A stretch of DNA of 64,000 nucleotides from IMG/VR virus record IMGVR_UViG_3300000517_000001; one strand, written 5' to 3'. Below the pieces are notes generated by a model that worked only from the letters and a program-made list of their open reading frames with translations, was not told the origin of the DNA and did not search any database. Position numbers and translations under genes: made by a program. This stretch comes from a virus. Taxonomy: Duplodnaviria; Heunggongvirae; Uroviricota; Caudoviricetes. Below are positions 457-54,447 of the stretch, in pieces (within the stretch, counting starts at the first letter, position 1; each line of letters begins with the position of its first letter).

Positions 457-2679
457 TTAATATGTTCCACCGTCTATTGCAGCAATTGCTACTGCACCAG
501 ATGTTACTGTAAAGTTATCTGCACTAAAGGAAGCAACACCCTTTGTAGAAGTTGTGGCATCAACACCAGAAAGAGTTACAGTAGCATTTTCACCTGTACC
601 GGTTACACTCAATCCAGTCCCGGCTGTAATACCAACACTTTGTACAAAATCACCGGTTGTATCCGTACCAAGAGTTACAGAATCAGCAGCAATTGTTGCA
701 GTGATTGTAGCATTAGCCGTACCATCAAATGTAGCAGAACCAGTAACATCACCTGTAAGCTCAATAGTACGAGTTGTTTCTAAAGCTGTTGCGGTAGATG
801 CATTACCACTCAGAGCAGCAGTAATTGTTCCAGCCGCAAAATTACCACTTGCGTCACGAGCAACTACCTTCGAAGCGGTGTTAGTTGTAGTCGCGTCGAC
901 AGCAAATGTTTGAGCTCCACTACCGTTATAAGCAGATCCTGTTAAGAAGCTTCCTGGTGTAAGACTTGCGAGGTTTGAACCAAGAGCAATACCGGAAATT
1001 GTAGAATTAGCAAGCTTTGAATTTTCAATACTACCCGCAAGTTTAGCATTTGTGATACCAAGATCTTTTACCTGAAGTGTATCAGCATCAATTGCAATAG
1101 TAGAATCATCTACATTAACACTAAATGTATCACCAGTAAGAGCTAAACCATCTCCGGCTAAGTACGTACCAGCACCAGAGAACTGCGCAAATACAATTGG
1201 ATCTGTGCCAACAGCGTTTACTGTTTCGGTTTGTACCCAACCTGTAGCACCATATTGAGAACCTTCAACAACAAATACAAAGTCACCACCTTCAATATTT
1301 TCATCTTCATCGAACGCAACATCACGAGTAAATACAGTACTACTTGTTCGAACGTAGATACCGTTATGAGCAGTATTTGCTTCATCTTTAATTAGGTATC
1401 TTTCACCATTAACAAGCGAAACACCATCGATGGTTGCAAGAGAACTTGCAAGTGTAAGAGTAGCACCAATACCATTGTTTGCATTATCATATGTTACAGA
1501 ACCGCCTGAAAGAGTAGCAAGTTCATCAGTCGTAGCTGCGCCAACACCTTCTTTAACGTTAAGACCTTGTGCTGTAGAATCTACATAAGCTTTAGTAGCT
1601 GCATCATCTGCTGCAATAGGTTCTGCCAATCCAATAATTCTTGCGCCATTAACTGCAACATTACCAGTACCGTTTGGATTAAGAGAGATATCGCCATTTG
1701 TATTTGTTGATGTAATATCATTGCCGTTAATATTGATATTATCAACTTGTAGTTCTGCAAGAGTTCCAATAGTAGCTGTAAGTGTTGTATTAGCGAGATC
1801 TGTGACTGTGGCACTACCGCTTAAGTCACCACCAAGCGTAATTGTAAAATCACCTGGATTAATAGTGATTGTATTGTCAGTAACAGCTGTTGAAATCCCT
1901 GCACCACCAGCAAAGGTAAGAGTATCATTTAAAAGATTAACAGTATCTGTTCCGGAATCACCAGCAATTCCTAAACTAGTCGCAATATTAGAAGTTGATA
2001 TCGCTGTAATGCGACCTTGCTGATCAACAGTAATTGCCGGTACTTGTGTAGAAGATCCATAAGAACCAGGTGTTACAGCAGTATTATCAAGATTAAAGGT
2101 TACTTCATTATTTGCAATAGATGATGTTAGTCCAGTTCCGCCCACAAATGTGAGAGTTTGGCCAGAATCAAAAAGATCGGATCCAGAATCTCCAGCAATA
2201 GTAAAACTTGTAACAACATTACCACTTAAAGCAACTGTATCAACATACGCCTTTGTAGCAGCATCTTGATTAGATGTGGGGTCAACAACATTAGTAATTC
2301 TACTTGTTGATGCGTTAATAACACCAGTACCATTAGGCGAAATATTAATATCGCCATTAACATTTGTTGAAGAAATGATATTGCCGTCGATGGTAATATT
2401 ATCGACATTTAGCACATCAATTTTAGATTGAGCATCTACAATAAGCGCACTATTAGCTGTGAGTGTACCAGGTGTGTGATCAAGTTTTTGAGTAAAATAC
2501 TTACCACCAATAACTTCGATGTTAGCAGCTTCACCATTAGTTTCAGTTCCAGTACCAATATAAAGTCTATCACCACCATTAATTTCGCTACCTGCTAAGT
2601 AGGAATAAGCAACTTCACCTTGGCCAAGAGCACTTGGAGATCCAGACGTACCAGATCTTTTAATCTTAATTACTGACAT
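457..2679 (-). CDS. tail-fibre protein (740 aa)
   Basis: Gly/Ser/Thr/Asn-rich protein with duplicated NITIDGN.ISSTN.NGDI..PNGTG and DAATKAYVD motifs. It shares a VTLGTDTTGDFVQS-type segment with the 1564-aa fibre. Confidence 0.7.
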   Translation of the reverse strand: MSVIKIKRSGTSGSPSALGQGEVAYSYLAGSEINGGDRLYIGTGTETNGEAANIEVIGGKYFTQKLDHTPGTLTANSALIVDAQSKIDVLNVDNITIDGNIISSTNVNGDINISPNGTGVINASTSRITNVVDPTSNQDAATKAYVDTVALSGNVVTSFTIAGDSGSDLFDSGQTLTFVGGTGLTSSIANNEVTFNLDNTAVTPGSYGSSTQVPAITVDQQGRITAISTSNIATSLGIAGDSGTDTVNLLNDTLTFAGGAGISTAVTDNTITINPGDFTITLGGDLSGSATVTDLANTTLTATIGTLAELQVDNININGNDITSTNTNGDISLNPNGTGNVAVNGARIIGLAEPIAADDAATKAYVDSTAQGLNVKEGVGAATTDELATLSGGSVTYDNANNGIGATLTLASSLATIDGVSLVNGERYLIKDEANTAHNGIYVRTSSTVFTRDVAFDEDENIEGGDFVFVVEGSQYGATGWVQTETVNAVGTDPIVFAQFSGAGTYLAGDGLALTGDTFSVNVDDSTIAIDADTLQVKDLGITNAKLAGSIENSKLANSTISGIALGSNLASLTPGSFLTGSAYNGSGAQTFAVDATTTNTASKVVARDASGNFAAGTITAALSGNASTATALETTRTIELTGDVTGSATFDGTANATITATIAADSVTLGTDTTGDFVQSVGITAGTGLSVTGTGENATVTLSGVDATTSTKGVASFSADNFTVTSGAVAIAAIDGGTY

Positions 2680-2927
2680 TAGTAATGTCCCCCATTAACT
2701 TGAGTATTTTCGTTTTCTATTATTGTTGTTGTTTCAAATGTAGAGGTATTACCATTATATATTAGAACACCACCGTCAGCAGCGTTAGATGTGTCGACAT
2801 CAAGAATATCACCTAGTCTAATATTGTTTGTGTTAACACGATATTCAGTAACCTGCAGTTGATTCTGCACGTTAACTCTACCTTTAATATTATGGCCTTG
2901 AGGAGTTACTTTAGCAGTGATAGACAT
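2679..2927 (-). CDS. hypothetical fibre-associated protein (82 aa)
   Basis: ATG/stop-coupled to flanking fibre genes. GDILDVDTSNAADGGVLIYNGNTSTFE resembles fibre N-terminal adaptor motifs. Confidence 0.4.
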   Translation of the reverse strand: MSITAKVTPQGHNIKGRVNVQNQLQVTEYRVNTNNIRLGDILDVDTSNAADGGVLIYNGNTSTFETTTIIENENTQVNGGHY

Positions 2928-3262
2928 TATGACCTCGTAATAATACCAGGCGTTACAGTCACAATACCCTCAACTACACGTGTTACTAATCCTCCACTTG
3001 ATGTTATTTCTACATCATAGAGATATCTTCCAGGGTCAAGTTGGTTAGTTACACTATTAGACATTATTAGTGTAATTTGTCCTAAGCTATCATTATCAGA
3101 TGTTGTAAAACTATAAGCAGTCTCAGATGCGTAGCTTTTTCGCATCTGAGCTGAAGAAGTGTAACCAGTCAAATCAAATGCATCACCATTTGCATCAACC
3201 ACATCAATGACTGCACTAAAATCAGTACCCTGATCTATTACAAGATTTGCTTTAATAGCCAT
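2927..3262 (-). CDS. hypothetical structural protein (111 aa)
   Basis: ORF coupled to downstream genes. Beta-rich composition. Lies 25 nt downstream of a late promoter. Confidence 0.4.
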   Translation of the reverse strand: MAIKANLVIDQGTDFSAVIDVVDANGDAFDLTGYTSSAQMRKSYASETAYSFTTSDNDSLGQITLIMSNSVTNQLDPGRYLYDVEITSSGGLVTRVVEGIVTVTPGIITRS

Positions 3263-3286: not shown

Positions 3287-3294
3287 TATTTATA
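3287..3294 (-). promoter_or_regulatory. T4-type late promoter TATAAATA
   Basis: Minus-strand TATAAATA (plus-strand tatttata) 25 nt upstream of the start at 3262, immediately after the island. Confidence 0.4.
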
Positions 3295-3314: not shown

Positions 3315-4157
3315 TTAATTAGACTTAAGCTCGCTTAAAAATGCATTTACATCATTCATCATATAATTAAATTGTTCTTTGGAAGACATTTTAGACAAAT
3401 TATAGTTATAACCTAGAAAAGTTTGATTCCAATTTTCATCCTCATATGTCTTGCTTAAATATTTTCTTACTTTTTCTTTGTCAACATTTACACCGAGAAT
3501 AGACAAATAATTTCCCGGTTTAGAAAAAGAATTGTTAAAATAATCAGACATACTTGGAATATTGTTTGAAGAAGGATCACCGGTAATAATTGCCTTGAAA
3601 TGTGGTTTCGCTCTTCCGGTTAAAACAAAGTCTACTTCACCAATTTCAAGAGCAGCAATTGCATCTCCAGAGCTTGCATAAGGAACATACTTAGAATTGC
3701 TTTCTAAGCCTTCTAACATTTTATTCATTTGAATTTTTTGCAAAAGACCAGAGGCACTGGAAGCTCCAATTTTAGCTTCACCATTCATAAATTTGTCTAA
3801 GTTATTTTCTGGATTAGATTCTAATGCAAAAACACTATAATATGCACTTGAATATATTGAAACAAAATTTTCTTCGTTTATTACGTGACACGTCTTATCA
3901 CTTGTAACAGCAGATCCTAAAATGTCCCACATAAAAATGGTAGGTTCTTTTGTAGATTCCATAATTTTAACTGCTTCTGTACAATTGCTTACCTTTAAAA
4001 CCTCTGTAAAAACTTCTGGAAATTCGGTGTTTAAATAGCTTGCGGTTTTGTGGGCCATTCCGCCAACTGAATATGGGTTAATAACTTTAATTCCATCAGC
4101 ATAAGCTACACTCATAGAAAAAATTAAAGAAAAAAACATACAAAGAACTTTTTTCAT
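3315..4157 (-). CDS. TctC/Bug-family periplasmic substrate-binding protein
   Basis: N-terminal signal peptide (MKKVLCMFFSLIFSMSVAYA). INPYSVGGMAHKTASYL matches the TctC (P[FY]..GG..D..AR) N-terminal motif, and YASSGDAIAALEIGEVDFVL matches the second conserved TctC block. Very AT-rich. Confidence 0.5.
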   Translation of the reverse strand: MKKVLCMFFSLIFSMSVAYADGIKVINPYSVGGMAHKTASYLNTEFPEVFTEVLKVSNCTEAVKIMESTKEPTIFMWDILGSAVTSDKTCHVINEENFVSIYSSAYYSVFALESNPENNLDKFMNGEAKIGASSASGLLQKIQMNKMLEGLESNSKYVPYASSGDAIAALEIGEVDFVLTGRAKPHFKAIITGDPSSNNIPSMSDYFNNSFSKPGNYLSILGVNVDKEKVRKYLSKTYEDENWNQTFLGYNYNLSKMSSKEQFNYMMNDVNAFLSELKSN

Positions 4158-4169
4158 TTACTTACTCCT

Positions 4170-5495
4170 TCATATTAAATATATTAAAGTTAAAAGATTA
4201 GATTGTATTTGATCATGCATCAAAAAAGAAAACACCAAAGGAAGAGTGTCAAACTTATTTATACATAGCCCAAATATAAGCATAACAAAAAGACACTGCA
4301 CATAAAATACAGGTTGATAAAAAGTATATCCAACAAATATAGTAATACCAAATAATAAAAGTAAAATAAAAATATACACATACTGATAGTTTACTTTTGT
4401 GATATGTCTTACCCAATTTACATATTTCCCGGCAAAAAATAATCCTATTATAGCACTAATAATGTAAGCTATTCCCAATTGTGTAAACATTGCTTGAAAA
4501 AAATCTGTTGTTAATGATAATCCTTGCATAGAAAATATATCATAAATAAAAACTTGACTGGCTGTTATTGGTAAACCAAGTAAAAGTAGTGGAAGAAGTT
4601 GAGAAAAAACTCCTGCATTATTTGCTGTTTCTGCAGAAAGGAGACATGAGATATCTCCTTCTTTATATGTTTTATTTCTTTTGCCTATAAATTTTTCGAG
4701 GTAGTATGCCATTGTTGTTCCGACATAAAAAGTTAATCCAGGAATAAATGAAGAAAAATATCCTAAAGTTAACCCTCTTGCTACTGTATATCGATATGTA
4801 ACTAGTTCTTTTATAGTTTCCAAATATCCATTTATAGATAACTTTACAAGCTCTATGTGTTGCTGTTTTTCAAATACCTTTTTAATAATATAAGGCATTA
4901 CATAAATTCCAAGAATTACAGTAATGGATGGTATACCAGAATAAAGATCAACAATACCAAATGTTAAAAAATGATTATCCTCCCACGAGTTATAACCGAC
5001 TTCAGCAAGACCATAACCTCCAAATACCATAAGTGTATTAGTCCATATTTTATTTTTTCCTACAATCATAAAAATAAACAAGGAAACAACTAAAAGAAAA
5101 GTCTTTACGTATGTACTAAAAAAAGGATAGAACATAAATGCAAAGTCAACAGTAACAATAGAAAAAAGTAAAGAAAAAATAGATCCTATAAAGCTACCTA
5201 TAGCTGCATACATAATAGCTTTACTGCCATCACCTTGTCTAAATAAAGTGTGAGCTTCGTGTATGGTAGGGATTGCAGTAGCTGATCCAGGAATACAAAA
5301 AAGAGTAGATGACACAGAACCGAAGTACTGACTAATGCTAACCACGACAACATATATCATGATAACATTTATGGGATCAATAACAACAAGAAGAGGATAC
5401 AACATAATAAGCACTGTAAATGCTGATATCCCTGGTATCATTCCCGCAATGATACCCATAAATGTTGCTATAGCAAATGTTAGAATTAATTCCAT
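4170..5495 (-). CDS. TctA-family (DUF112) transporter permease
   Basis: 441 aa with many predicted TM helices. Duplicated G.IPG(I/L) motifs (IAGMIPGISAF, SSFIPGLTFY) are typical of TctA large subunits. No TctB-like gene is seen. Confidence 0.5.
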   Translation of the reverse strand: MELILTFAIATFMGIIAGMIPGISAFTVLIMLYPLLVVIDPINVIMIYVVVVSISQYFGSVSSTLFCIPGSATAIPTIHEAHTLFRQGDGSKAIMYAAIGSFIGSIFSLLFSIVTVDFAFMFYPFFSTYVKTFLLVVSLFIFMIVGKNKIWTNTLMVFGGYGLAEVGYNSWEDNHFLTFGIVDLYSGIPSITVILGIYVMPYIIKKVFEKQQHIELVKLSINGYLETIKELVTYRYTVARGLTLGYFSSFIPGLTFYVGTTMAYYLEKFIGKRNKTYKEGDISCLLSAETANNAGVFSQLLPLLLLGLPITASQVFIYDIFSMQGLSLTTDFFQAMFTQLGIAYIISAIIGLFFAGKYVNWVRHITKVNYQYVYIFILLLLFGITIFVGYTFYQPVFYVQCLFVMLIFGLCINKFDTLPLVFSFLMHDQIQSNLLTLIYLI

Positions 5496-5502
5496 ATCAA
5501 TA

Positions 5503-6606
5503 TCAAATTTTTTGTATTAACCAATCAGGTACCTTTTTTATTTTTACAGTTTCACTAGATCTTAAAATCTGTTGATTTCCCATGCTGGCTTTAATATCAT
5601 CGATAATTCTTTTTATGCCAGGGTGTTCTAGTTTATAAAATGCTTTTTTTGTTTCATTATGTAAAGGGCTTCCCGGTTTATATGCTGCAGAATTCATTAA
5701 TGCATTTACAGCTTTATAACCCATATATTCATTTATTTGTTCATAAAAGGGACTATTGTATGTTTGCCACCCACCAAGTCTAACTTCGCCTTTATTGTGA
5801 ACAGCAGCTAAACGTTCAAGTATTTCTATTTTCAGCCATGCTAGCTTTATTTGAATTTCTGGAACATCATCGGTAATGAAAAAAAATACATCATCATAAG
5901 CATCTGTAGCTAACATTTTTGCTGAAACTATTTCATGGGATGGCATATACCATTCCCAATAATTATTTCGAATACCAATCATAGGCTTTTCAAAGCCATA
6001 TACGACTGCAGTCTTTTTTTTACTTGTGTCTATTCTAATATGATTATTTTTTTCTGTGTATAGCCTATACCAAGAAGATGTCATTGCTATGTCATAAAAT
6101 TTTTGTGGTTTAAACGTTTTAATGGTTTCTTCAAATTCTTTTGGTGTAGAAGACCATACGTAATCGTTTGAATCGACTTTGGGAGACATAACTTTATAAT
6201 TTAAGTCTTTAAATTGTTGACTGTATTTTTTTAATGAATGAATAACACCTTCATTCATTTTTTTACGACCATTATAAGAAAGCTGCTCTGCTGACACTGT
6301 ATCATACAAAATGATGTTTTTTATCTTACAACGTATAAAAGATTCTAAAGCAGTATGACTATCTGTCCCACCGCTATACATAAGAATTATTTGATCATAT
6401 TTTTCATTAAGAATTCTACTATGCAAATCCAAATAATAGTGTATTGGATATACAGGCTCTTTTTGCCAATTTGCATTTTGTATAAAATCATAGTTTAAAT
6501 GAAAAACAAGCGGCTCCTTTAATTTACATGCAACAGGAGCCGCTTCTATATCTGAATAGTATTTCTTACCTTGTACACTAAAATAAAATTTTAAACCACT
6601 AAACAT
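5503..6606 (-). CDS. PP-loop (N-type) ATP pyrophosphatase, family unclear
   Basis: SGGTDS PP-loop motif (ILMYSGGTDSHTAL) about 75 aa from the N-terminus. 367 aa. AT-rich. Confidence 0.55.
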   Translation of the reverse strand: MFSGLKFYFSVQGKKYYSDIEAAPVACKLKEPLVFHLNYDFIQNANWQKEPVYPIHYYLDLHSRILNEKYDQIILMYSGGTDSHTALESFIRCKIKNIILYDTVSAEQLSYNGRKKMNEGVIHSLKKYSQQFKDLNYKVMSPKVDSNDYVWSSTPKEFEETIKTFKPQKFYDIAMTSSWYRLYTEKNNHIRIDTSKKKTAVVYGFEKPMIGIRNNYWEWYMPSHEIVSAKMLATDAYDDVFFFITDDVPEIQIKLAWLKIEILERLAAVHNKGEVRLGGWQTYNSPFYEQINEYMGYKAVNALMNSAAYKPGSPLHNETKKAFYKLEHPGIKRIIDDIKASMGNQQILRSSETVKIKKVPDWLIQKI

Positions 6607-7189
6607 CTCTTACAATCATTAAATTTTCAGTTATCACTTCGTCAATAATATTTCCAGGATCTATTACATCTGTGACAACTAATTTTTCACCAAAATAATT
6701 TTGATAGAATGAAAGGGTGCTTTCACTAACTAAAGAAAAAATAAGTATATTTTTAAATCCATTTTCTAATGCTACTACTTGTGTCGAATAGTCCATTAGT
6801 TCTTTGCATATTTTAAAATTTTGGTAATCTTTATGCACTCTAATATATGTTATACTAAAACATTCGTTTTGGTTGATGTTGTTATCTATCATATAATTTT
6901 TTATTATATTACTGCTAGAAGATAAATTGATTCCTGGCGATGATGAAGAATCTAAAAAGAATGAGCATCCAACTAAAATATCATCGTCATACGCCGTTAC
7001 TAAATAGCTGTTTTCTCTAGTAAAATAATCATTTAATGTATTCACAGTAATTTCATAATTTAAATTATCTTCAACTGTTCTATTATAACCATATGAAGAA
7101 TTTAAAGTAAAATCGATTATTTCATTTATTTCCGTACTTTCAACATCTTTAAGCAATTTATGTGAATAATTGATCATTTTTATCTCCAA
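6599..7189 (-). CDS. GNAT-fold acyltransferase-like protein
   Basis: 196 aa. Central ILVGCSFF strand and ITYIRVHKDYQNFKICKELMDY...NYFGEKL resemble GNAT motifs A/B. Weak. Confidence 0.35.
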   Translation of the reverse strand: MEIKMINYSHKLLKDVESTEINEIIDFTLNSSYGYNRTVEDNLNYEITVNTLNDYFTRENSYLVTAYDDDILVGCSFFLDSSSSPGINLSSSSNIIKNYMIDNNINQNECFSITYIRVHKDYQNFKICKELMDYSTQVVALENGFKNILIFSLVSESTLSFYQNYFGEKLVVTDVIDPGNIIDEVITENLMIVRDV

Positions 7190-7668
7190 TTAGTGCTTCT
7201 AGATGTGGTTTTAGATGTTGTACGTGAAGTAGTTTTAGATGTTGTACGTGAAGTAGTTTTAGATGTTGTACGTGAAGTAGTTTTAGATGTTGTACGTGAA
7301 GTAGTAAAAAATGTGGTAAAAAACGTAGTATAAGGTTCACCTTCAACGGGCGTGAAGGTTGTACGTGATGTTGTACGTGAAGTAGTAAAAAATGTGGTAA
7401 AAAATGTGCTAAATGACGTCGTGTATGATGTGCTAAATGACGTCGTGTATGATGTGCTAAATGACGTCGTGTATGATGTACTAAATGATGTCGTCCACGT
7501 ATTTGTGGCATTATAAAAGTCAGAAAATGAAATTTCCCCGTTAGCAGGAATAGCCCCGCCAACTTGTGTAGGAGGGTTATAAAACTCTGAAATACTTGTA
7601 GGAACTGTGTCGTTAAACTCTGTGCCAATATCACCTAATGATATAGCTCCGTTACTTTGCAACGCCAT
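7180..7668 (-). CDS. Ser/Thr/Tyr-rich tandem-repeat protein (162 aa)
   Basis: Unique 60-aa N-terminus (MALQSNGAISLGDIGTEFNDTVPTSISEFYNPPTQVGG...) followed by (TTSFSTSY)x4 and (TTSRTTSK)x4 repeats. AGGA RBS 8 nt upstream. Boundaries interlock with neighbours (overlaps of 17 and 10 nt). Confidence 0.45.
   Translation of the reverse strand: MALQSNGAISLGDIGTEFNDTVPTSISEFYNPPTQVGGAIPANGEISFSDFYNATNTWTTSFSTSYTTSFSTSYTTSFSTSYTTSFSTFFTTFFTTSRTTSRTTFTPVEGEPYTTFFTTFFTTSRTTSKTTSRTTSKTTSRTTSKTTSRTTSKTTSRSTNWR
7199..7500. repeat. two arrays of 24-bp tandem direct repeats
   Basis: Unit tagatgttgtacgtgaagtagttt repeats about 4 times (7212-7307). Unit gtgctaaatgacgtcgtgtatgat repeats 3-4 times (7406-7499). 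aaaaaatgtggtaaaaaa is also duplicated. Confidence 0.85.
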
Positions 7669-8416
7669 CTATTTCGTCCTTGTATATGCATTTGCTTATT
7701 TTATTCCACCAACCAAAATGTCGATTCTTCATACAAGAATGACAATTTCCACACGCCTCTATCCTTTTATTTATATACTTAGGTTCGCGACAAGAAAATA
7801 TCAACTTTTTGTAATCATCTGGCATTTCATTATACATTTCTGCTAAATTATTAGCTTCAAACGCTGTTATGGTATCACATCTATTTCTTGTATAGGCCCT
7901 AACAAAATTACCTAAACATACCATATGTTCTTTAATATCTTTTGAAAGAGTAGAGTAATTTTGATTTCTATCAAATGCGTCTATAAAACAATCACCGGCA
8001 ACTATATGAGAAATTCCTTCAATATATGCATAGTTTAAAGACAATATTACACCTGTATACCAATCTCTTAAAAGAGGCATTTCATAAGTAGAACGGACTT
8101 CAGAAGTTATTAACTTAATATGTTTGCCTTGATTTCTTAAGTATTCTATTTGCCTTTCTACAGAAAATCTTTCCGTATCTGCTCTTTGAGATATACTATC
8201 ATACATAGAAATATGATGACATACGATATCGTCAGTGTATTGAGCATATTTCCATAACATATATGCGCTGTCTAATCCACCAGACACAAGTATTAATGAT
8301 TTCTTTCCAATCTTAGCATCCTCTAAAACTTGTTCAAAAGAAGGCCATCCTACATCAGAAGTTAGATTGTACATACTTATACCTATAGTCTTTTCTTTTT
8401 TCATGAATATACTCAA
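7652..8416 (-). CDS. QueC-family PP-loop ATPase (7-cyano-7-deazaguanine synthase-like)
   Basis: SLILVSGGLDSAYML...DDIVCHHISMYD parallels QueC VVVFSGGQDSTTCL...DEVHCVTFDYGQ. C-terminal Cys cluster ACGNCHSC matches the QueC zinc site GCGHCAAC. The true start may be an internal Met, since the ORF overlaps the upstream gene. Confidence 0.6.
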   Translation of the reverse strand: MSIFMKKEKTIGISMYNLTSDVGWPSFEQVLEDAKIGKKSLILVSGGLDSAYMLWKYAQYTDDIVCHHISMYDSISQRADTERFSVERQIEYLRNQGKHIKLITSEVRSTYEMPLLRDWYTGVILSLNYAYIEGISHIVAGDCFIDAFDRNQNYSTLSKDIKEHMVCLGNFVRAYTRNRCDTITAFEANNLAEMYNEMPDDYKKLIFSCREPKYINKRIEACGNCHSCMKNRHFGWWNKISKCIYKDEIDGVAK

Positions 8417-9251
8417 GATACTTTGAAATTCTTTCTCTCCAATCGTCTTGATACTTTGGATTTACTAGACCAGATCTATAATCATTAAACATTTTATTTA
8501 TAACATATTCTGGATTGCTGGTTTCAAAAAAATGCTTATTTACGTGGGAAAAAGATCCAAAAAATTTAGACTGAAATGTATCAATAGGATCAATTTTTTT
8601 TCCTAAGCATAAAGAATGAAAAGCTGTTTCACTCCAATGAGTTGTATAAACAATGCTTGCATCTTTTATATATTCGTACACATCACTTTCTTTATTAGCT
8701 ACGTTTGCATGCTTATGTATACTTTTTTGAAAAAAATCTGTCATATCCCTATCAACAAGAGGATGAGGTTTAAATATTGCAAGTTTTCCATAAGTATTGT
8801 ATATATGCTTAAGTTTATTAAAGCACATATTATCTAGCTTATTGTTACCTATTAGTACCACTACGGCTTCTATGTTTTTAACATGTTTGCCTGCTGTTTT
8901 ATACTTATTAACATTTTCCTTTTGAAGATTGTTTGCATAGATATTAAAAAAATCGACTGAAAAATTGTCATCGCCATATATTAGTGCCTCTTCAACCTGA
9001 ATGTGAGATAAATCAGGTTGAAGAGGATGCATCATAAAAAAGTCACTGTAATTTGTATAGTTAACCGAGTCAAAATAAGGATGTTGAAATGCACTTAAAT
9101 CATATGAAGCATTTGTTGGATATTTTTTCATTTCCTCTAAAAAAAATTTTTCAACTTCTCGAAGGTGTTCATACCTTTTAAAATTTACTTTTTCAATATA
9201 ATCTCCAAATCTAATGTTGCGCTCTTCATCACTAAACATAGTATTGTTCAT
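8355..9251 (-). CDS. hypothetical protein, possible GT-B-like transferase
   Basis: 298 aa. KPHPL and YTTHWSETAFHSLCLGKKI loosely resemble the nucleotide-sugar-binding region of GT-B / capsule-synthesis transferases. Weak. Confidence 0.3.
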   Translation of the reverse strand: MNNTMFSDEERNIRFGDYIEKVNFKRYEHLREVEKFFLEEMKKYPTNASYDLSAFQHPYFDSVNYTNYSDFFMMHPLQPDLSHIQVEEALIYGDDNFSVDFFNIYANNLQKENVNKYKTAGKHVKNIEAVVVLIGNNKLDNMCFNKLKHIYNTYGKLAIFKPHPLVDRDMTDFFQKSIHKHANVANKESDVYEYIKDASIVYTTHWSETAFHSLCLGKKIDPIDTFQSKFFGSFSHVNKHFFETSNPEYVINKMFNDYRSGLVNPKYQDDWRERISKYLEYIHEKRKDYRYKYVQSNF

Positions 9252-9267
9252 AATTTATTATTTCTCC

Positions 9268-12200
9268 TTAGCCTTTAGATTTTAATTGTTCAATTTCAGA
9301 TTTTAATTCTTTAATAGCTTCAATAAGAAGAGGTATAAGCTTTTCATACTTAACTGTTAAATAATCCTCTTCAACATGCTCTTCATAGCTAATTGGCGCT
9401 TTTGTTACAATTTCTGGTAAAATTGCTTGAACCTCTTGTGCACTGACACCTACTTGAAGTTCATTTGTATAGCCAAGATTTTGAGCAGTTTCATTTGGAG
9501 TGTAGTAATATCCATTAAGTGAATTTACTTTATTTAATGCATTATTTATTGTACCTTTAAAATCTTTCAGTCTTGCATCAGAATAGAAAGCTGTGATATC
9601 ACCAGTTGCACGAATTTCACCACCTGTGGGAGCAGCCGTACCTACACCAAGACCAACTGTTTGGAATGTACCAGTTGTAACATCATTTGCATCTGCACGT
9701 ACAAATTGAGTGCTGTTAAGACCATCAAGCAATTCAGAATCAGCAGCTTTCGCCGAAATCCCAAGGAATCTTGTGTCCAGATCTACTGTTCCAATAGAAG
9801 TGATGTGACCAAATCCATCAACAGTAATATCTTCTACTACTACTCCATTTCCAGCCCCGCCGTAGGATCCGCTTAATGTAGACGTATCAGAGTGCGAAAC
9901 TGTAACAGTTTCATTAGATGCCTGATTAAGAGTAAATACACCACTTCCGGTTAATCCAGAACCAGTTGCAATTGTAATAGATGCATCATTTGGAGTAGGA
10001 AGGTTACCTGAGTGGAATAGAGTTCTTTGTACACCACTGTTGTCTTCTACTGACCAATCATTCGCAGTATCATCCCACATAAGTGTTCTGTATACATTTG
10101 AATTATCATCATAGAAATTGATAATGGAATCACCACCACCATTTTGTCCTACTTGAACCAATCCATTAACTGTAAGATTTCCGGTAATGGTATCACCAGA
10201 TGCATTAACATATCTCGAATCAGATTCACTTGTAGTATAGAAATCAAGAGCTCTTGTTGTTGCAGCTGTTACGTGTCCAAATCCATCATAAGAAAGACTG
10301 CTAATAACATTCTTTCCAGATGTTGAAGTATCTGTAATTGACGAAGTGTCAGCATGTGCTAAAGTAATTGTCTCATTCGATGTTTGGTTGGTTGTAAAAT
10401 TGCCACCAGTAACAAGACCACTTCCTGCACTAATAGTAATTGTAGCATTGCCGATAGTAGGTGGATTAGTAATGTCATTATAATTAATGTCGCCAGTTAA
10501 GGTCCCGGCGCTTACAGTTCCTGTTGTAGTAAATCCACCTGCAGTAATTGTTCCGTCAGCATTTACGTTACCTGTACCGAGAATTTGGAAAACAGAATCA
10601 CTACTGTTTGGTGTATCGGTTATATCAACGGATGTTCCGGTAGCATTTGCTCTAAATTCAGCAATAACATCAATTGATTCACCATCACCTGCAACAATTA
10701 GTGCAGGAGTATTGGTTCCGTCTTCAATGTTTTTAACAATCTTTGCAGCTGCGCTTCCTGCAGTGGTTGATTGTAGAATCGTCGTATTAGCAAAAGTTTT
10801 AAAACCGCTAATTGTTTGATTAGTTGTTTGTCTTACATAACGAGTATCAAGATTTGTTGAACCAAGAGCTGTTATATGACCATATGTGTCAAGAGTAATG
10901 TCTTGAATTACATTACCATTTGAATTATTAACACTTGCTTGAGTAGACGTATCGGCATGTGAAACTGTCGCTGTTGCCCCAACACCTGATCCAGAAACGC
11001 TAATTCCTGCTCCCGCCGCAACTGTTTCAACATAATCCCCAGTAGTATCTGTGCCAAGTATAATAGATCCACTATTAAGATTTGCATTAATAGTTATATT
11101 TTGTGATCCATCAAAGGTTGCAGAGCCAGTTAATGCTCCTCCAAGTGTAATCGATCTAGCAAACTGAAGTTTTGAAGCAGTAGAAGCATTACCAGAAAGA
11201 CTTCCAATAAATGAACTTGCTACAAGGCTTTGAGAACCAAGTGTCCAACGATCCGCCGTTTCATCCCAAAGGAAGCTTACATTAGTAGATGTTCCTCGTT
11301 CTATTTCAAATCCAGCATTTTGTGAAGGTGTACCTGTTTCATCAGAATTTAAAAGAAGAATATTGTCGCCAATATTTACTTCATTAGTGTTAATAGTTGT
11401 AGTTGTACCTTCGACGAGAAGATTGCCAGATACAACAACATCTTCACTTACTGTAACACTGTTGAAAGTAACATCTGATGTGGTTGCAACTGCTTGACCA
11501 ATAGAAATTGTAGGTGTAGCACCTTCACCACTATTATTCGTAATTGTAACGCCAGTACCTTGTACTAAACTTTGAACATAGGCACCAGTTGTATCAGTAC
11601 CGAGAACAACAGAGTTTGGTTGAATTGCTGTTAAAATAGAAATTGAACCATTGGCTAAATCTGTAAGTGTAGCACTCGAAGAACCAACTACATCACCACT
11701 AAGGGCAACACTTATAGTTGGATCAGGTTTATTGGCTACATTGGTCCAATCGAGAGTACCAATAAAGTTGCCGGCATACACATTATCCCATTGAGCAGCA
11801 CTACTACCAAGATCATAGGTAAGAGTTGCTTGTGGTAAAATATTAGAAATAACAGTGGCACCTGGCACAAGTTCGAACGTATCAGTAACCGAAAATACCT
11901 GAACATCAGATTCTGCAAGAGATAGCGTTACATTACTTGAAAAAGATGTATTTCCAAGAACAGTTAAATCACCTTGTACAACTAAATCAGATTGATTTAG
12001 TTGATCACCAACAACAGTTAAAGTGCTGTTAAGAGTTGCGTCTGAGTTTACAATAAGGTCATCAGCACTATTTACACCTATTGTAAATGTATCAATATTT
12101 GCAGTAAATGTGTTAGCGGTGAATGTAGAATTAGCACCCACAATAAGATCAGTTGTAGCTACGTTTGCATAAAGACCAGCAAATTTTGCATTACCATTTA

Positions 12201-13962
12201 CAGTAACTCTTCCGCTATGTGTTGTATTAGCAGAAACGTTAAGTGTATTTGTTGTAATACTTGTTCCAGTACCTGTTATATTTGTATTTGTAGAATTGAT
12301 TACAGTGTTTGTTGATGTAATGCTTACATTACCAATAGCTGTTAATGGTCCTGTAATACTAGTCGCACCAGTAATATCTGTTGCGGAGTTAATATCAACT
12401 GTTGCCCCATTAAATGTTGTATTTGATCCAACAGTCATAGAAGGACCAGTAATAGTCAAGGTACTATTAAGATCCACTGTAGATCCGGTAACACTGGTAT
12501 TAGCATTAACTACAAAGGAAGTACCATCAATTGTAGTACTTGCATTTACATCTAATAGTGAACCAGTTACAGATGCAGATCCAATAATATCTGTATTAGA
12601 TCCGGTGATTGTAGTATTAGCAGCAATTTCGAGTGTAGATCCGGTAACAGTTGTATTAGCTGCAACATCAAAATCAGTACCGGTAAACGATGCAGAACCA
12701 ACTACTGTAGTTATGCCATTAATATTTACATTAGATGCATTTACAGTTGTATTAGCATTAATTATTGCATTTGTGCCAGATGCTGTAACATCACCATTTA
12801 AGCCAATTGTAGAACCAATAATTGATGTATTGGCATTAACAGTAAGTGATGTGCCATCAACAGTTGTTGCATCTGAATTAATATCTAATAGTGAACCAGT
12901 TACAGATGCAGATCCAATAATATCAGTATTTGTTCCAGTAATTGTTGTATTACCAGTAAGAGCAATTGTAGATCCGTCAATTGTCGTATTTGCGTTAACA
13001 TCAAGATTTGTGCCGGTAACTACGGTTGTTCCTGTTACAGTAGTGTGACCCACAATGTTAACATTCGAACCAGTAATTGTCGTATTTGCATTAACATCTA
13101 CTGTTGTGCCGTTAACAGTTGTGTTTGCATTAATGGTAGAAGTTGTGCCACTAACAGTTGTATTACCAGCAACATCGATCGCAGTACTATTAACATCAAC
13201 AAAAGCAACATTTGCAATTGCTGTATTTGATATTAATGTAAGATCAGAAAGAGTGGCAACAACAGCATCCGAAGTTACATCAATAGCTGTAGAATTTACA
13301 GAAACGGTGTTTGAATTAATAGTAATGTCTTGAGCCGTATGGGTAAATGTTGTACCATTAAATGTCGCAGTAGTGTAATCTACATCTATTGCTGTTACGT
13401 TAGCTGTAAGTGCAGCTGCAGTGATTGTAGAATTAGCAGTAATATCAAGATCAGTTGTGTGGATGTTAAGAATAGCGCCATCAACTGTTGAATTAGAAGA
13501 TAGATTAAATGTATTTGCTGTAATATCAAATAATGCTGATGTTGTAGTAATATTACCAAATGTAGCTGCAAAGTTTTTAGTTGCCCCGCCATCCATTGTA
13601 ACGTTAGAGGAAATTACTACATTATTTGCGTCGACGTTAAGTAAATTAGTATTGGCTTGTACATCAATAAGATTAGACTGCTGAAATACGGTATTTGTTG
13701 TGACTACAAGATTTGCCGGTGTGCTTACCGTTCCGCCACGAAGTGCATCAGTTGCAACAAGAGTATTAGCAGAAGAAAAGCCTTCAACATGAGTATTTCC
13801 TGTTACTGCAGCACCATTTGTAGTATTTGGCTGTGCAACAGGCCCAGCTGTAAGAACAACGGTTCCCATGTCATAAACAAGTTGATTGGTTTTGTTAATC
13901 CAACCGCTAAAAGAATCTGTGGTAATTTCTACATTAGCACCAAGATATGTTGTTTTTGCCAT
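9268..13962 (-). CDS. long tail-fibre protein with C-terminal intramolecular-chaperone (S74-like) domain
   Basis: 1564 aa. Long beta-helix-like N.TTV.G(S/T) repeat run. C-terminus FYSDARLKDF...coiled coil matches the self-cleaving chaperone domain Ser/Lys motif (SD.RLK). Confidence 0.8.
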   Translation of the reverse strand: MAKTTYLGANVEITTDSFSGWINKTNQLVYDMGTVVLTAGPVAQPNTTNGAAVTGNTHVEGFSSANTLVATDALRGGTVSTPANLVVTTNTVFQQSNLIDVQANTNLLNVDANNVVISSNVTMDGGATKNFAATFGNITTTSALFDITANTFNLSSNSTVDGAILNIHTTDLDITANSTITAAALTANVTAIDVDYTTATFNGTTFTHTAQDITINSNTVSVNSTAIDVTSDAVVATLSDLTLISNTAIANVAFVDVNSTAIDVAGNTTVSGTTSTINANTTVNGTTVDVNANTTITGSNVNIVGHTTVTGTTVVTGTNLDVNANTTIDGSTIALTGNTTITGTNTDIIGSASVTGSLLDINSDATTVDGTSLTVNANTSIIGSTIGLNGDVTASGTNAIINANTTVNASNVNINGITTVVGSASFTGTDFDVAANTTVTGSTLEIAANTTITGSNTDIIGSASVTGSLLDVNASTTIDGTSFVVNANTSVTGSTVDLNSTLTITGPSMTVGSNTTFNGATVDINSATDITGATSITGPLTAIGNVSITSTNTVINSTNTNITGTGTSITTNTLNVSANTTHSGRVTVNGNAKFAGLYANVATTDLIVGANSTFTANTFTANIDTFTIGVNSADDLIVNSDATLNSTLTVVGDQLNQSDLVVQGDLTVLGNTSFSSNVTLSLAESDVQVFSVTDTFELVPGATVISNILPQATLTYDLGSSAAQWDNVYAGNFIGTLDWTNVANKPDPTISVALSGDVVGSSSATLTDLANGSISILTAIQPNSVVLGTDTTGAYVQSLVQGTGVTITNNSGEGATPTISIGQAVATTSDVTFNSVTVSEDVVVSGNLLVEGTTTTINTNEVNIGDNILLLNSDETGTPSQNAGFEIERGTSTNVSFLWDETADRWTLGSQSLVASSFIGSLSGNASTASKLQFARSITLGGALTGSATFDGSQNITINANLNSGSIILGTDTTGDYVETVAAGAGISVSGSGVGATATVSHADTSTQASVNNSNGNVIQDITLDTYGHITALGSTNLDTRYVRQTTNQTISGFKTFANTTILQSTTAGSAAAKIVKNIEDGTNTPALIVAGDGESIDVIAEFRANATGTSVDITDTPNSSDSVFQILGTGNVNADGTITAGGFTTTGTVSAGTLTGDINYNDITNPPTIGNATITISAGSGLVTGGNFTTNQTSNETITLAHADTSSITDTSTSGKNVISSLSYDGFGHVTAATTRALDFYTTSESDSRYVNASGDTITGNLTVNGLVQVGQNGGGDSIINFYDDNSNVYRTLMWDDTANDWSVEDNSGVQRTLFHSGNLPTPNDASITIATGSGLTGSGVFTLNQASNETVTVSHSDTSTLSGSYGGAGNGVVVEDITVDGFGHITSIGTVDLDTRFLGISAKAADSELLDGLNSTQFVRADANDVTTGTFQTVGLGVGTAAPTGGEIRATGDITAFYSDARLKDFKGTINNALNKVNSLNGYYYTPNETAQNLGYTNELQVGVSAQEVQAILPEIVTKAPISYEEHVEEDYLTVKYEKLIPLLIEAIKELKSEIEQLKSKG

Positions 13963-41454: not shown

Positions 41455-41824
41455 GTTAAGTGAGCCCGTTCTGTTGCCCGGTGGAGCTCATACCGCGTAG
41501 ACTCAAGCTGCGAGTGCTACAGGTTCTGCGTTAATGTTTGCAGTTATTAAGATGCGACTATTACGCGTTCGCCTCCGATAGTCTCCACGTTCCCTTCCGC
41601 ATACGTCGATCCCAATTCACCCCCATCAAAGATACACTTTAAGCTTCAGAGTGTCGGACTCGAACCGACATACCCTTCTCTGATATTCAGAAACACAGAA
41701 CGTTACAATGTTCCCTTAGTTGGCCAACTAGCTTATAAAGGTTGCGGCGCCTTTAAGTGTATCCGTGGTGGAGGTGCGGGGTTTCGAACCCCGGTCCGTC
41801 CTACGTCCAGTCAGTTTCACCGAC
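41455..41824 (-). ncRNA. ssrA: circularly permuted (two-piece) tmRNA gene
   Basis: On the minus strand the order is: acceptor piece, intervening segment, coding piece. The acceptor piece ends ...CGGGG-TTCGAAA-CCCCG-CACCTCC-A-CCA (canonical T-arm, 7-nt 3' acceptor strand, discriminator, CCA; plus 41765-41792). About 140 nt downstream lies GGGGGTG-AATTGGGATCGACG (plus 41624-41604), a perfect partner for CACCTCC followed by the tmRNA D-analog consensus (cf. GGGGCUGAUUCUGGAUUCGACGGG). Then comes a tag reading frame. ORF-free. Confidence 0.55.
41503..41541 (-). other. tmRNA tag reading frame ANINAEPVALAA-stop
   Basis: GCA AAC ATT AAC GCA GAA CCT GTA GCA CTC GCA GCT TGA on the minus strand. Typical AN...ALAA degradation tag. 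Resume-region AATAGTCGCA-like sequence just upstream. Confidence 0.5.
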
Positions 41825-42051
41825 TACAATATATTTATACCATAAAAACTCTTTAATGTCAACAAGATAAACACGCAACCAAGTATACCCATAAAAATAT
41901 GTTTTGCATTTTCAATATCTATACCAAACGATGTAAGAACAGCAACAGAAAAAACAGTTAGAATATAACTTGTAAGAATTGATAATGGGATATTAACCGT
42001 GATCATAGCGACGTAGTTTCTCTTCGCGCCCTTCTCTTTGACCATAGCCAA
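41824..42051 (-). CDS. small membrane protein (75 aa, 2 TM), holin-like
   Basis: Two hydrophobic helices. Charged N-terminus. Confidence 0.4.
   Translation of the reverse strand: MAMVKEKGAKRNYVAMITVNIPLSILTSYILTVFSVAVLTSFGIDIENAKHIFMGILGCVFILLTLKSFYGINIL
41831..41838 (-). promoter_or_regulatory. T4-type late promoter TATAAATA upstream of the tmRNA locus
   Basis: Minus-strand TATAAATA (plus-strand tatttata) about 7 nt before the start of the structured RNA region. Confidence 0.4.
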
Positions 42052-43872: not shown

Positions 43873-44823
43873 TTAAGCAGCGTCTGCCATTTCAAGGGCA
43901 AGCTCAAGAGCATCAGTCTTCAGCTTGCGGTTGGCGCCATACCATGCCGACTGAAGGCGAGTATCAGCAGTACGACCAAGTTCGTGGTCAGTCATGTAGG
44001 TGATTGCATTGAAGGCAGTCCAGAAGGTACCTTCCGCAAACTCTGCACCGGGCTGTTCCTGAAGAACTTCCATTGCACGCTGACCTTTACGGCTCAGCTC
44101 ACCTTCGTTCTTGTTCGACATGCCAAGCAGATGACCGAAGTACTGCTTTACAGTTTCTTCGGTAGTACGCTTCGAGCCAAGGAACTCAGCCATCTCTTTG
44201 TACTGACCCATCTTAAAGTGCGCGATACCCATCATTTCCTTGACAGCATCAGCATCGAACTGCGAACGGTGGTTAACACGAACAGCTGCTTGACCTTGTT
44301 GCTGAAGAGAAAGAGTCAAAGTGTTGTTGCAGACCACGCGGATCGGAGTGAAACGGATGTCGATGGTTTTACCATACTGATGAGGGTTCGAGAAAAGCAT
44401 GTAGCTTTCAACCTTATCACCATTGAACAACTCGAAGTCATCATTGACTTTTGCAAGAGCCCAGATGATTTCGCCATTCTTCAGCGAACCAGCAGTATGC
44501 ATTTCCATTTGTCCACGCTCGACAAACTCAGCGAAGAAATCGAAAGCTTCTTCATTTTGTACAGGGTGCCAGTTCTTACCGACCTGGGTCAGGACTCGAC
44601 CATCGGTCTCGCGAACAAGAGCCTTTTGGCCAGTGGGGATTTGTTTACCGTTGAAGTTCACAAAGGACTCAACTTCCTGAACACGCCAGTCGACACCAGC
44701 TGCTTTCATCATTTCCTCGGGCGAGATGTCAGGATCAACCTGAACTCCAAGCCCATGCCAAGGAAGTTCACCAACATATGCATGCTGTGCTTGACCGTTG
44801 ATCATTTCAAGTTCGTGTGCCAT
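43873..44823 (-). CDS. DUF932-family protein
   Basis: N-terminal MAHELEMINGQAQHAYVGELPWHGLG matches the DUF932 signature (..G.A.MAY.G..PWHGLG). Markedly GC-richer than its surroundings. Confidence 0.55.
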   Translation of the reverse strand: MAHELEMINGQAQHAYVGELPWHGLGVQVDPDISPEEMMKAAGVDWRVQEVESFVNFNGKQIPTGQKALVRETDGRVLTQVGKNWHPVQNEEAFDFFAEFVERGQMEMHTAGSLKNGEIIWALAKVNDDFELFNGDKVESYMLFSNPHQYGKTIDIRFTPIRVVCNNTLTLSLQQQGQAAVRVNHRSQFDADAVKEMMGIAHFKMGQYKEMAEFLGSKRTTEETVKQYFGHLLGMSNKNEGELSRKGQRAMEVLQEQPGAEFAEGTFWTAFNAITYMTDHELGRTADTRLQSAWYGANRKLKTDALELALEMADAA

Positions 44824-54418: not shown

Positions 54419-54447
54419 AATCTATCATATTACAAAAGAGATGTCAA
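54419..54447 (-). promoter_or_regulatory. early promoter repeat (TTGACA-17-TAGATT)
   Basis: Family member. Confidence 0.5.

Follow-up and report, generated by a model that had tools for sequence, protein, structure and literature searches.

Two gene modules in the late tail fibre operon of a T4-like phage: a TctA, TctC-like and PP-loop trio beside a putative glycosyltransferase cluster

This report concerns a compact gene island at positions 3315-9251 of a 64,000-nucleotide stretch of viral DNA from a marine or freshwater T4-like myovirus (IMG/VR record IMGVR_UViG_3300000517_000001; the whole stretch is called the window below). The island holds seven open reading frames (ORFs), all on the minus strand and transcribed in the order p7-p6-p5-p4-p3-p2-p1, which overlap by 4-20 nucleotides (nt) or are separated by gaps of 7-16 nt. 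It is two modules and not a single seven-gene system: Module A (p7-p6-p5-p4) includes a glycosyltransferase-like protein and a Ser/Thr-rich protein with an adhesin-type N-terminal domain, and Module B (p3-p2-p1, hereafter the trio) encodes a PP-loop enzyme, a TctA-type permease and a secreted binding protein. Upstream the island is anchored by the gene for a 1564-amino-acid (aa) tail fibre (9268-13962, minus strand) with a C-terminal S74-type intramolecular chaperone region, whose C-terminus matches Peptidase_S74-annotated genes at 53% identity in L001 and L002 and at 72% in L020 (L-numbers denote the viral contigs or loci compared); p7 starts 16 nt past the stop codon of this gene. Downstream follow an LtfC-like gene, an 82-aa gene and a 740-aa fibre gene (together 457-3262). 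The first of these (2927-3262, minus strand), which forms the downstream boundary, encodes a 111-aa fibre-assembly protein that matches phrog_3304, 'L-shaped tail fiber protein assembly' (1.8e-22), and in a case of synteny it also lies downstream of the trio in L001. A first-pass annotation made from the DNA alone had already described seven co-directional, tightly coupled genes between tail fibre genes, which the ORF coordinates and spacing confirm.

Two products of the trio resemble components of the tripartite tricarboxylate transporter (TTT) encoded by the Salmonella tctCBA operon (TctABC). p2 (4170-5495, minus strand; 441 aa) belongs to a short, phage-associated subfamily of the TctA-type permeases, confirming what had been proposed at first pass: it matches Pfam PF01970 at 2.5e-64 (217.9 bits) over profile positions 2-416 of 423, aligns with Salmonella TctA over 428 columns in hhalign (99.8%, E 2e-29) and contains about ten or more hydrophobic segments. 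Its relatives, 209 homologous clusters of ~425-445 aa, are almost all metagenomic, and the TctA matches obtained with tblastn among 50,697 cultured phage records are bacterial-type sequences. p1 (3315-4157, minus strand; 280 aa), separated from p2 by 12 nt, has a signal peptide with an AYA/D cleavage site, one N-terminal hydrophobic segment and near-invariant cysteines, and is a secreted, divergent member of the TctC/Bug family of binding proteins. The family assignment, also made at first pass, stands in profile-profile comparison, where a profile of twelve p1 homologues matches one of six annotated TctC proteins over 266 columns (hhalign 97.1%, E 5.1e-11), with weaker single-profile matches to BugD and TctC; it finds no match in Pfam, and set against one TctC sequence alone it gave either no match or a weak one. 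TctC/Bug proteins bind carboxylates, including Asp and Glu.

Set beside the Salmonella system, p2 is a full-length TctA and p1 a secreted TctC-family protein encoded by an adjacent gene, and by analogy the pair would be expected to carry out the substrate-binding protein (SBP)-dependent uptake of a carboxylate. However, the phage TctA is ~60 aa shorter (441 vs 504 aa), the phage TctC is ~40 aa shorter and too divergent for Pfam, and the small 4-TM subunit TctB, which belongs to canonical TTT systems and has 143 aa in the Salmonella operon, is without a counterpart in the island, where there is neither an ORF for it nor room in the gaps; a small membrane gene is likewise missing from most of the trios in other phages. 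The phage version is further set apart by its dedicated PP-loop enzyme, its place in a late structural operon and its membership of a clade that is almost absent from cellular genomes. To our knowledge, complete binding-protein-dependent transporters encoded by viruses are rare.

The PP-loop enzyme p3 (5503-6606, minus strand; 367 aa), separated from p2 by 7 nt, had been noted as a 367-aa SGGTDS PP-loop ATPase; this is confirmed (motif YSGGTDSHT) and can be refined to an adenylating enzyme with the synthetase-domain fold of asparagine synthetase (AsnB), beta-lactam synthetase or carbapenam synthetase. Enzymes with this type of fold adenylate a carboxylate and then form an amide. p3 shares the fold and the PP-loop SGGxDS with AsnB, beta-lactam synthetase, carbapenam synthetase and TsnB9, but identity is 7-11%, only ~70 residues precede the PP-loop so that there is no N-terminal glutaminase domain, and there is no match to Pfam (Asn_synthase) or NCBIfam. 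In contrast to these enzymes it also has an extra ~55-aa N-terminal beta/alpha unit and the family motifs GxEKP, DDVPEIQIKLSWLK and MGY, and its family is essentially virus-only. A p3 profile run against PDB sequences gave spurious GGT-motif matches only. Scans of IMG/VR with single p3 and p2 sequences returned nothing, and alignments were required; a word-indexed search with p3 found 15 clusters, a 100% identical cluster representative among them, and a profile search uncovered a wide unannotated family of 1317 representatives that carries no Pfam annotation and has weak, PAPS-reductase PHROG matches. In a Pfam scan of 61 distant members of this family, one showed a phage endonuclease I domain (1.9e-8); it is presumably the 688-aa P0097, the sole member long enough, and would be a PP-loop/endonuclease fusion.

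The genes for p1, p2 and p3 lie next to one another in ~16 independent viral lineages and in four different orders: p3-p2-p1 (the window, L001, L008, L019 and L041), p2-p3-p1 (L004), p2-p1-p3 (L006, L009-L012 and L033) and p1-p2-p3 (L013 and L036). In every contig with enough flank, a p3 homologue adjoins TctA and a p1-like gene. The number of lineages and the four orders argue for selection for co-occurrence, not for inherited synteny. When the search was started from the TctA side, 15 IMG/VR loci were obtained, with a PP-loop partner in 11 at the first tblastn pass and in 13 once the wider p3 profile had added L039 and L040; of the two loci without a partner, one is on a contig cut at the gene and the other on a short contig that lacks it. 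Among 185,579 species genomes the p3 family occurs only on one 4.5-kb contig of a metagenome-assembled genome, which resembles the phage loci L008 and L014. Like the p3 family, the short TctA clade has essentially no members outside viruses.

The company kept by the trio is also recurrent. DegT aminotransferases are neighbours in L004, L006, L009 and L013 and sugar 4,6-dehydratase/epimerases in L004, L006 and L008, L004 having in addition a hexapeptide acetyltransferase, a GT10 and a sulfotransferase, and S74 fibres lie directly 5' of the trio region in L001, L008, L010 and L019. A second recurrent neighbourhood consists of radical-SAM genes (L009 1-6125, L011 3706-7499, L033 2012-3214), with DUF6071 in L009 and L011; one of these three contigs is a 316-kb jumbo phage, and the genes may hint at a more elaborate tailoring of small molecules or sugars. 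The distant TctA trio of L042 is accompanied by a DctP-family SBP of the tripartite ATP-independent periplasmic (TRAP) type (1013-1924), a second SBP on one phage. The L006 trio contig (5764-7058 and 15303-17810) encodes CsgG- and CsgF-like curli secretion proteins, a CHASE2-guanylate cyclase, Thy1 and a Mom-like protein, an unusual mixture that could be a prophage-host junction. Earlier work lists tctA as a putative auxiliary metabolic gene (AMG) of unknown role on contigs of SUP05 viruses (Roux et al. 2014, PMC4164917; PMC6359870). What the present loci have in common with those reports is a TctA-domain gene on uncultured marine phage contigs; there it was a domain match only, and the TctC-like and PP-loop partners and the fibre and sugar neighbourhood went unrecognised. 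A literature search for a phage TTT module or a phage transferase of 3-deoxy-D-manno-octulosonate (Kdo) returned the SUP05 tctA mention only.

In Module A the first gene transcribed is p7 (8355-9251, minus strand; 298 aa), the GT-B-like protein of the first-pass annotation, which can now be refined to a glycosyltransferase-like protein of the cytidine monophosphate (CMP)-ulosonic-acid, or Kdo/sialyl, type. Two methods assign it a modified GT-B fold like that of Kdo- and sialyltransferases, and its invariant residues are KPHP (161-164, invariant in 24 homologues), D51 and S207-E208. The pattern (K/R)XHP is the CMP-binding motif of retaining beta-Kdo glycosyltransferases (PMC12887879). p7 thus shares both modified GT-B fold and motif with the retaining beta-Kdo transferases WbbB (GT99), KpsC (GT107) and KrkA (GT140), with which the sialyltransferases have the HP motif in common. 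Unlike these three enzymes it has no QXXXD nucleophile/carboxylate-binding motif: the matching stretch VVLxGxNKL is without a conserved Gln or Asp, and the invariant acidic residues are D51 and E208. p7 is also smaller, has no match to Pfam Capsule_synth and is encoded right after phage fibre genes, and its acceptor would presumably be a protein instead of a lipid-linked glycan. A p7 profile gave nothing useful against PDB sequences. In a search of the 50,697 cultured phage records for near-identity to the island DNA and, by tblastn, for six concatenated island products, the sole match was that of p7 to Caulobacter phage Lullwater (23% identity). Homologues of p7 were found at 216 IMG/VR loci, where they are located in structural modules. 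In the window, L010, L020, L021, L024 and L025, p7 follows an S74 fibre immediately or almost so. Neighbourhoods were surveyed at the best 80 of the 216 loci, and few of them carry p6, p5, p4 or the trio, p7 being mostly alone, as it also is in L022-L025; S74 detection in this survey relied on four seed sequences and was probably insensitive, and its low S74 count is not to be read as absence.

p6 (7652-8374, minus strand, with the longest ORF reaching 8416; ~240 aa, 240-254 depending on the start, homologues beginning at MYNLT) is a PP-loop ATPase in which the motif SGGLDS is followed, in the alignment, by a conserved C-terminal Cys cluster (C205, C218-x2-C221-x2-C224). These two features bear out part of its first description as a QueC-like PP-loop/Zn enzyme; the likeness to QueC itself is weak and confined to the N-terminus, at 18.4 bits against the 22-bit cut-off of Pfam QueC and 1.3e-5 against the QueC model of PADLOC, and p6 further matches phrog_1550 at 5e-10. 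Its profile found no QueC match and nothing useful among PDB sequences, and neither the surroundings of the island nor the scanned window ORFs showed FolE, QueD, QueE or DpdA/TGT. Paralogy of p3 and p6 was considered and ruled out, since the PP-loop alone aligns. Apart from the N-terminal PP-loop of p6, PADLOC models find no match in the island, the remaining six proteins giving nothing, and a defence or counter-defence system was rejected.

p5 (7180-7668, minus strand; 162 aa) consists of a 58-aa N-terminal domain, the 'fibre adhesin head', and a tail of TTSF/TTFF/TTSR/TTSK repeats. Its composition (31% Thr and 18% Ser, 49% together) and the two perfect 24-nt tandem arrays that encode the repeats (7208-7305 and 7404-7494) confirm the Ser/Thr repeat protein recognised at first pass. 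The GC-rich phage L021 has repeats of the same type, which indicates that the reading frame is real; a 158-aa His/Leu/Arg-rich ORF over the repeats (7158-7634, minus strand) was discarded as a shadow ORF arising from the tandem repeats, the p5 frame being conserved in L010, L020 and L021. A profile of the N-terminal domain matches the N-terminus of a 382-aa 'putative tail fiber adhesin' of Rhizobium phage RHph_Y68 (E 1e-12), whose gene directly follows the S74 fibre gene of that phage and overlaps its end, as well as a 328-aa post-S74-fibre protein in L019 (4e-8); the domain also heads a 177-aa protein in L010 and has weak matches in 37 cultured-phage records. The post-S74 'tail fibre adhesins' of T4-like alphaproteobacterial phages are recognised by a ~55-aa N-terminal domain, GxISLxD...SxSEFY...GxISxSxF, and by their position 3' of the S74 fibre, and p5 has both, with p7 and p6 standing between it and the fibre in the window. 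By domain and position, then, p5 fills the slot of the adhesin after the S74 fibre, p7 and p6 being interposed. The opinion given at first pass that the island's content is no virion module is right for most products. p4 (6599-7189, minus strand, alternative start 7177; ~192 aa), first described as a GNAT-fold protein, is a probable acyltransferase of that fold by a marginal pass in Pfam Acetyltransf_1 (21.7 bits, cut-off 20.7); it aligns over its full length with the GNAT encoded 3' of p7-p6 in L021 (23% identity, E 3e-8), for which the precomputed Acetyltransf_1 match is weak.

The island has a GC content of 30.4% against 37.7% in the rest of the window, where the lowest window of the same size has 33.7%. 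The dip reported from the DNA by eye, 28 against 40, is thus real and the lowest in the window, but smaller than claimed, and it is not accompanied by a distinct codon usage: it is confined to codon positions 1 and 2, and the GC content at third positions (GC3) is 0.18-0.25 in the island genes and 0.16-0.23 in the flanking structural genes. The dip is a matter of amino-acid composition, Lys/Asn/Ile-rich enzymes being set against Gly/Ala/Thr-rich fibres. With GC3 the same as in the flanks, the low GC is no evidence of recent foreign origin, and its explanation by recent horizontal capture was rejected. The reading of the island as a captured fragment of a host operon, offered at first pass, is disfavoured by the native GC3, by TctA and PP-loop families that are almost only viral or metagenomic and by the missing TctB.

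A late promoter had been placed immediately after the island. The 52 bp that separate p1 from the LtfC-like gene do contain a T4-type late-promoter motif, TATAAATA, at 3287-3294 (minus strand), with the next ATG 25 nt further on; this is no more than a match to a motif whose enrichment in the window is only mild (13 matches vs 7.5 expected). Three further copies lie inside the island (4256-4263, 7768-7775 and 8495-8502, all on the minus strand, with none on the opposite strand), ~100-120 nt 5' of the starts of p1, p5 and p6. They could be internal late promoters, for example raising the output of the binding protein, and their number is within chance for DNA of 30% GC. A scan for sigma-70 promoters and terminators found no signal exceeding chance in the island interior.

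The T4-like character of the source phage is apparent from its baseplate protein gp6, which is 45% identical to that of the Sinorhizobium phages phiM12 and phiN3, and from window ORFs for gp32, gp59, RNase H, PhoH and T4 baseplate proteins. The window also carries a permuted transfer-messenger RNA (tmRNA) of alphaproteobacterial type (41459-41866, minus strand; Rfam alpha_tmRNA 79.3 bits, tmRNA_permuted 93.6 bits; ARAGORN tag peptide ANINAEPVALAA), and this type suggests an alphaproteobacterial host. tmRNAs are uncommon on phages. Distant from the island, in the replication/early region, lies a gene for a GT1-family glycosyltransferase (54430-55344, minus strand; Pfam Glycos_transf_1, 7e-12), which might have DNA as its target or belong to a different glycosylation step, and the early region also has two accessory genes, for a DUF932 protein (43873-44823, minus strand) and an SPFH/Band-7 protein (61031-61933, minus strand).

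The division of the island into two modules follows the distribution of its genes. The order p7-p6-p5 recurs in L020 and p7-p6-GNAT-p5 in L021, an S74 fibre, p6 and p5 surround p7 in L054, and p5 together with a weak p4 match (E 3e-4) lies beside p7 in L052. Most lineages have the trio without p7, and the companions of p6 are p7 and p5 instead of the trio; in L001 the trio occupies the same position as in the window, with other genes in place of p4-p7. Only L010 joins the two, with p7-p5 and then the trio. The search for the same gene set elsewhere therefore succeeded for the parts, the trio in ~16 lineages and p7-p6-(GNAT)-p5 in a handful, and failed for the seven genes together, so that the single system proposed at first pass is not upheld. 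TTT transporters, AsnB-type PP-loop enzymes and transferases of Kdo/sialyl type are all of known kinds. Nothing was found to match the set as a whole, as the first-pass annotation had surmised, and in the searchable literature we found no description of a phage-specific, TctB-less trio of TctA, TctC and PP-loop enzyme, of its link to fibre and amino-sugar genes or of a p7/p6/GNAT cluster around a Ser/Thr-rich adhesin-type protein.

The interpretation that we prefer, tentatively and at somewhat less than an even chance, is that of a cassette expressed late and devoted to tailoring a fibre-associated glycoconjugate, for which the trio would import a carboxylate and attach it by an amide bond. 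Its two separable modules would be insertions that part an S74-type fibre gene from the fibre genes downstream. p7 would act as a cytoplasmic glycosyltransferase of CMP-ulosonic-acid type, with host CMP-Kdo or a nonulosonic acid as the probable donor, and would glycosylate a virion protein; because of its adhesin-after-S74 slot and its Thr/Ser-rich repeat tail, p5 is the most likely acceptor. p6 and p4 might then modify the sugar or the acceptor further. Meanwhile the phage would install a TTT uptake system of its own in the infected cell, composed of periplasmic p1 and the permease p2 without TctB, and import a carboxylate whose carboxyl group p3 would adenylate and join to an amine by an amide bond, the product supplying or finishing an acyl or amide decoration of the (amino-)sugar. 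The late fibre operon position, the absence of an internal terminator above chance and the native GC3 count in favour of this interpretation, as do the trio's adjacency in many lineages and four orders, its virus-only families, the carboxylate-directed character of p1 and p3, the amino-sugar and fibre neighbours of the trio, the fold and motif of p7 together with its place after S74 fibres, and the adhesin-type N-terminal domain of p5. Among the three readings offered at first pass, the strongest support goes to a cassette that modifies the fibre or a surface.

A possible parallel is provided by the pse/ptm islands for O-glycosylation of flagellin and pilin with nonulosonic acids in Campylobacter and Helicobacter, in which the PP-loop amidotransferase is of PseA type and the GNAT of PseH type. 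By analogy, the same classes of parts would be present here, that is, a Ser/Thr-rich surface-filament protein, a CMP-sugar transferase, a PP-loop amidotransferase and a GNAT. However, homology to PseA/WbuX (no NCBIfam match), PseH or Maf is not shown, the window has no Pse/Leg biosynthetic genes and the context is a phage virion. In its broader form the preferred interpretation becomes a virus-specific strategy of uptake and ligation, in which many environmental phages, jumbo phages among them, install a TctB-less, SBP-dependent carboxylate importer that feeds a phage-only PP-loop ligase, and the ligase builds an amide-linked decoration of virion glycans, here an ulosonic-acid glycan placed by p7 on p5. 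This broader form we regard as doubtful.

Several points weigh against the preferred interpretation. We infer all of the substrates, the direction of the amide coupling, p5 or the fibre as acceptor and the cooperation of the two modules. Without the QXXXD nucleophile of the retaining Kdo transferases, the assignment of a donor and a mechanism to p7 is weakened, and no gene for the biosynthesis of a CMP-sugar or nonulosonic acid was seen among the ORFs of the 64-kb window. The missing TctB departs from canonical TTT systems. Some trio contexts carry radical-SAM genes and DUF6071, or Thy1 and Mom, and no sugar genes. Since p7 is mostly found without p6, p5, p4 or the trio and the trio mostly without p7, the case for cooperation of Modules A and B comes from two contigs, the window and L010. 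Finally, arguments from neighbourhood lose force because unrelated accessory genes tend to accumulate close to the fibre genes of T4-like phages.

This last consideration leads to the alternative that survives best, although we think it unlikely: independent accessory modules (morons) with unrelated functions may lie side by side in a hyperplastic fibre region, the trio being a self-contained unit for uptake and amidation, p7 a stand-alone enzyme and p6, p4 and p5 separate again. The solitary p7 of most of the best 80 of 216 loci and of L022-L025, the many trios without p7, the failure to find the seven-gene set elsewhere and the other genes that replace p4-p7 beside the L001 trio are all as such an assembly would predict. 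It is less easily reconciled with L010, where p7 and p5 again lie directly 5' of the trio in a different order, with the recurrence of the p7-p6-GNAT-p5 grouping in L020, L021 and L054 and with the fact that both modules separately indicate carboxylated or amino-sugar chemistry and fibres.

The island might instead act on the host surface, p7 capping or altering the nascent O-antigen of lipopolysaccharide or the capsule with an ulosonic acid and the trio supplying a decoration, so that the receptor of the adjacent fibre is masked and superinfection or the loss of progeny on debris is prevented. The closest structural relatives of p7 act on lipid-linked acceptors of O-antigen or capsule, WbbB and KpsC both using lipid-linked glycans, and the island adjoins receptor-binding genes, much as phage seroconversion genes typically flank tailspike genes and llp of T5 adjoins the receptor-binding gene of that phage. 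We nevertheless consider a role at the host surface improbable: a T4-like and probably lytic phage expressing these genes from a late operon would be left with little time in which to rebuild a surface that already exists, neither a flippase nor a Gtr-type membrane glycosyltransferase is present, and a Ser/Thr-rich virion protein of adhesin type is embedded in the cluster.

Less probable still is a nutritional role, in which the trio would be an AMG set: an organic or amino acid, for instance aspartate, glutamate or a di- or tricarboxylate, would be taken up and converted to its amide in the manner of an Asn/Gln synthetase, and phage production in an oligotrophic host would gain nitrogen or carbon. 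The carboxylates bound by Bug/TctC proteins (Asp, Glu and others), the AsnB-like fold of p3, the listing of tctA as a putative AMG in SUP05 viruses and the TRAP DctP protein of another trio-bearing contig would fit. Typical AMGs, however, are close copies of host genes, and p3 has neither a detectable sequence relationship to asparagine synthetases nor cellular orthologues; the trio, moreover, sits in a late structural operon and recurs beside sugar-tailoring and fibre genes, not early metabolic genes. Native GC3, virus-only clades, missing TctB and late structural context together disfavour both a generic AMG role and recent capture from a host.

A pathway to a hypermodified nucleotide, which would begin with the import of a carboxylate precursor of the base or side chain and continue with a QueC-like amidation, p6 being the QueC-type enzyme, is very improbable. 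The weak QueC-likeness of p6 is suggestive, QueC chemistry being an ATP-dependent amidation of a carboxylate, as are the Thy1 and Mom genes a few kb from the L006 trio and the radical-SAM genes by the trio in L009, L011 and L033, but p6 falls below the QueC threshold and travels with p7 and p5 and not with the trio, the DpdA/TGT, FolE, QueD and QueE partners are missing from the vicinity and from the scanned window ORFs, and the island lies in a late fibre operon instead of a replication module. Least probable of all is a pathway like those of ribosomally synthesised and post-translationally modified peptides (RiPPs), with p5 as a precursor whose repeated Thr/Ser cores, flanked by K or R, follow a conserved N-terminal leader and are modified by p6, p4, p7 and p3 before export or import through the TTT proteins: lasso peptides are indeed cyclised by AsnB-like enzymes, and some RiPPs are tailored by GNATs and glycosyltransferases, but enzymes that define a RiPP class are missing, as is a protease, TTT systems work as importers that depend on an SBP, and the N-terminal domain of p5 heads fibre-adjacent proteins of 177-382 aa with globular C-termini, one of them annotated as a tail fibre adhesin, which marks it as a domain for structural attachment, not as a leader. 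The first-pass idea of a peptide or small-molecule modification pathway accordingly keeps its amidotransferase-type chemistry and loses the RiPP-like action on the repeat protein.

Whatever the fate of the preferred interpretation, in which the cassette tailors a fibre-associated glycoconjugate, the trio, with its partners, its virus specificity and its amino-sugar and fibre company, is a concrete and testable unit of viral 'dark matter'. The phage tctA gene has so far been a domain hit of unknown role, and here it is tied to a TctC-like protein and to a dedicated, unannotated PP-loop ligase. The p3 and p7 families, the former with over 1300 representative clusters and the latter present in over 200 viral contigs, would be new families of carbohydrate and amide-bond enzymes. 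The island points to acidic glycosylation, of Kdo or sialic type, of a fibre-tip protein in phages of Gram-negative bacteria. If this is true, the glycosylation of virions would be more widespread and chemically richer than the few studied cases suggest, with a bearing on receptor recognition, host range and the behaviour of particles in water. If the uptake and ligation strategy is also true, the surface chemistry of the virion, and hence its host range or environmental stickiness, would hinge on a small molecule that is scavenged from the surroundings of the cell.

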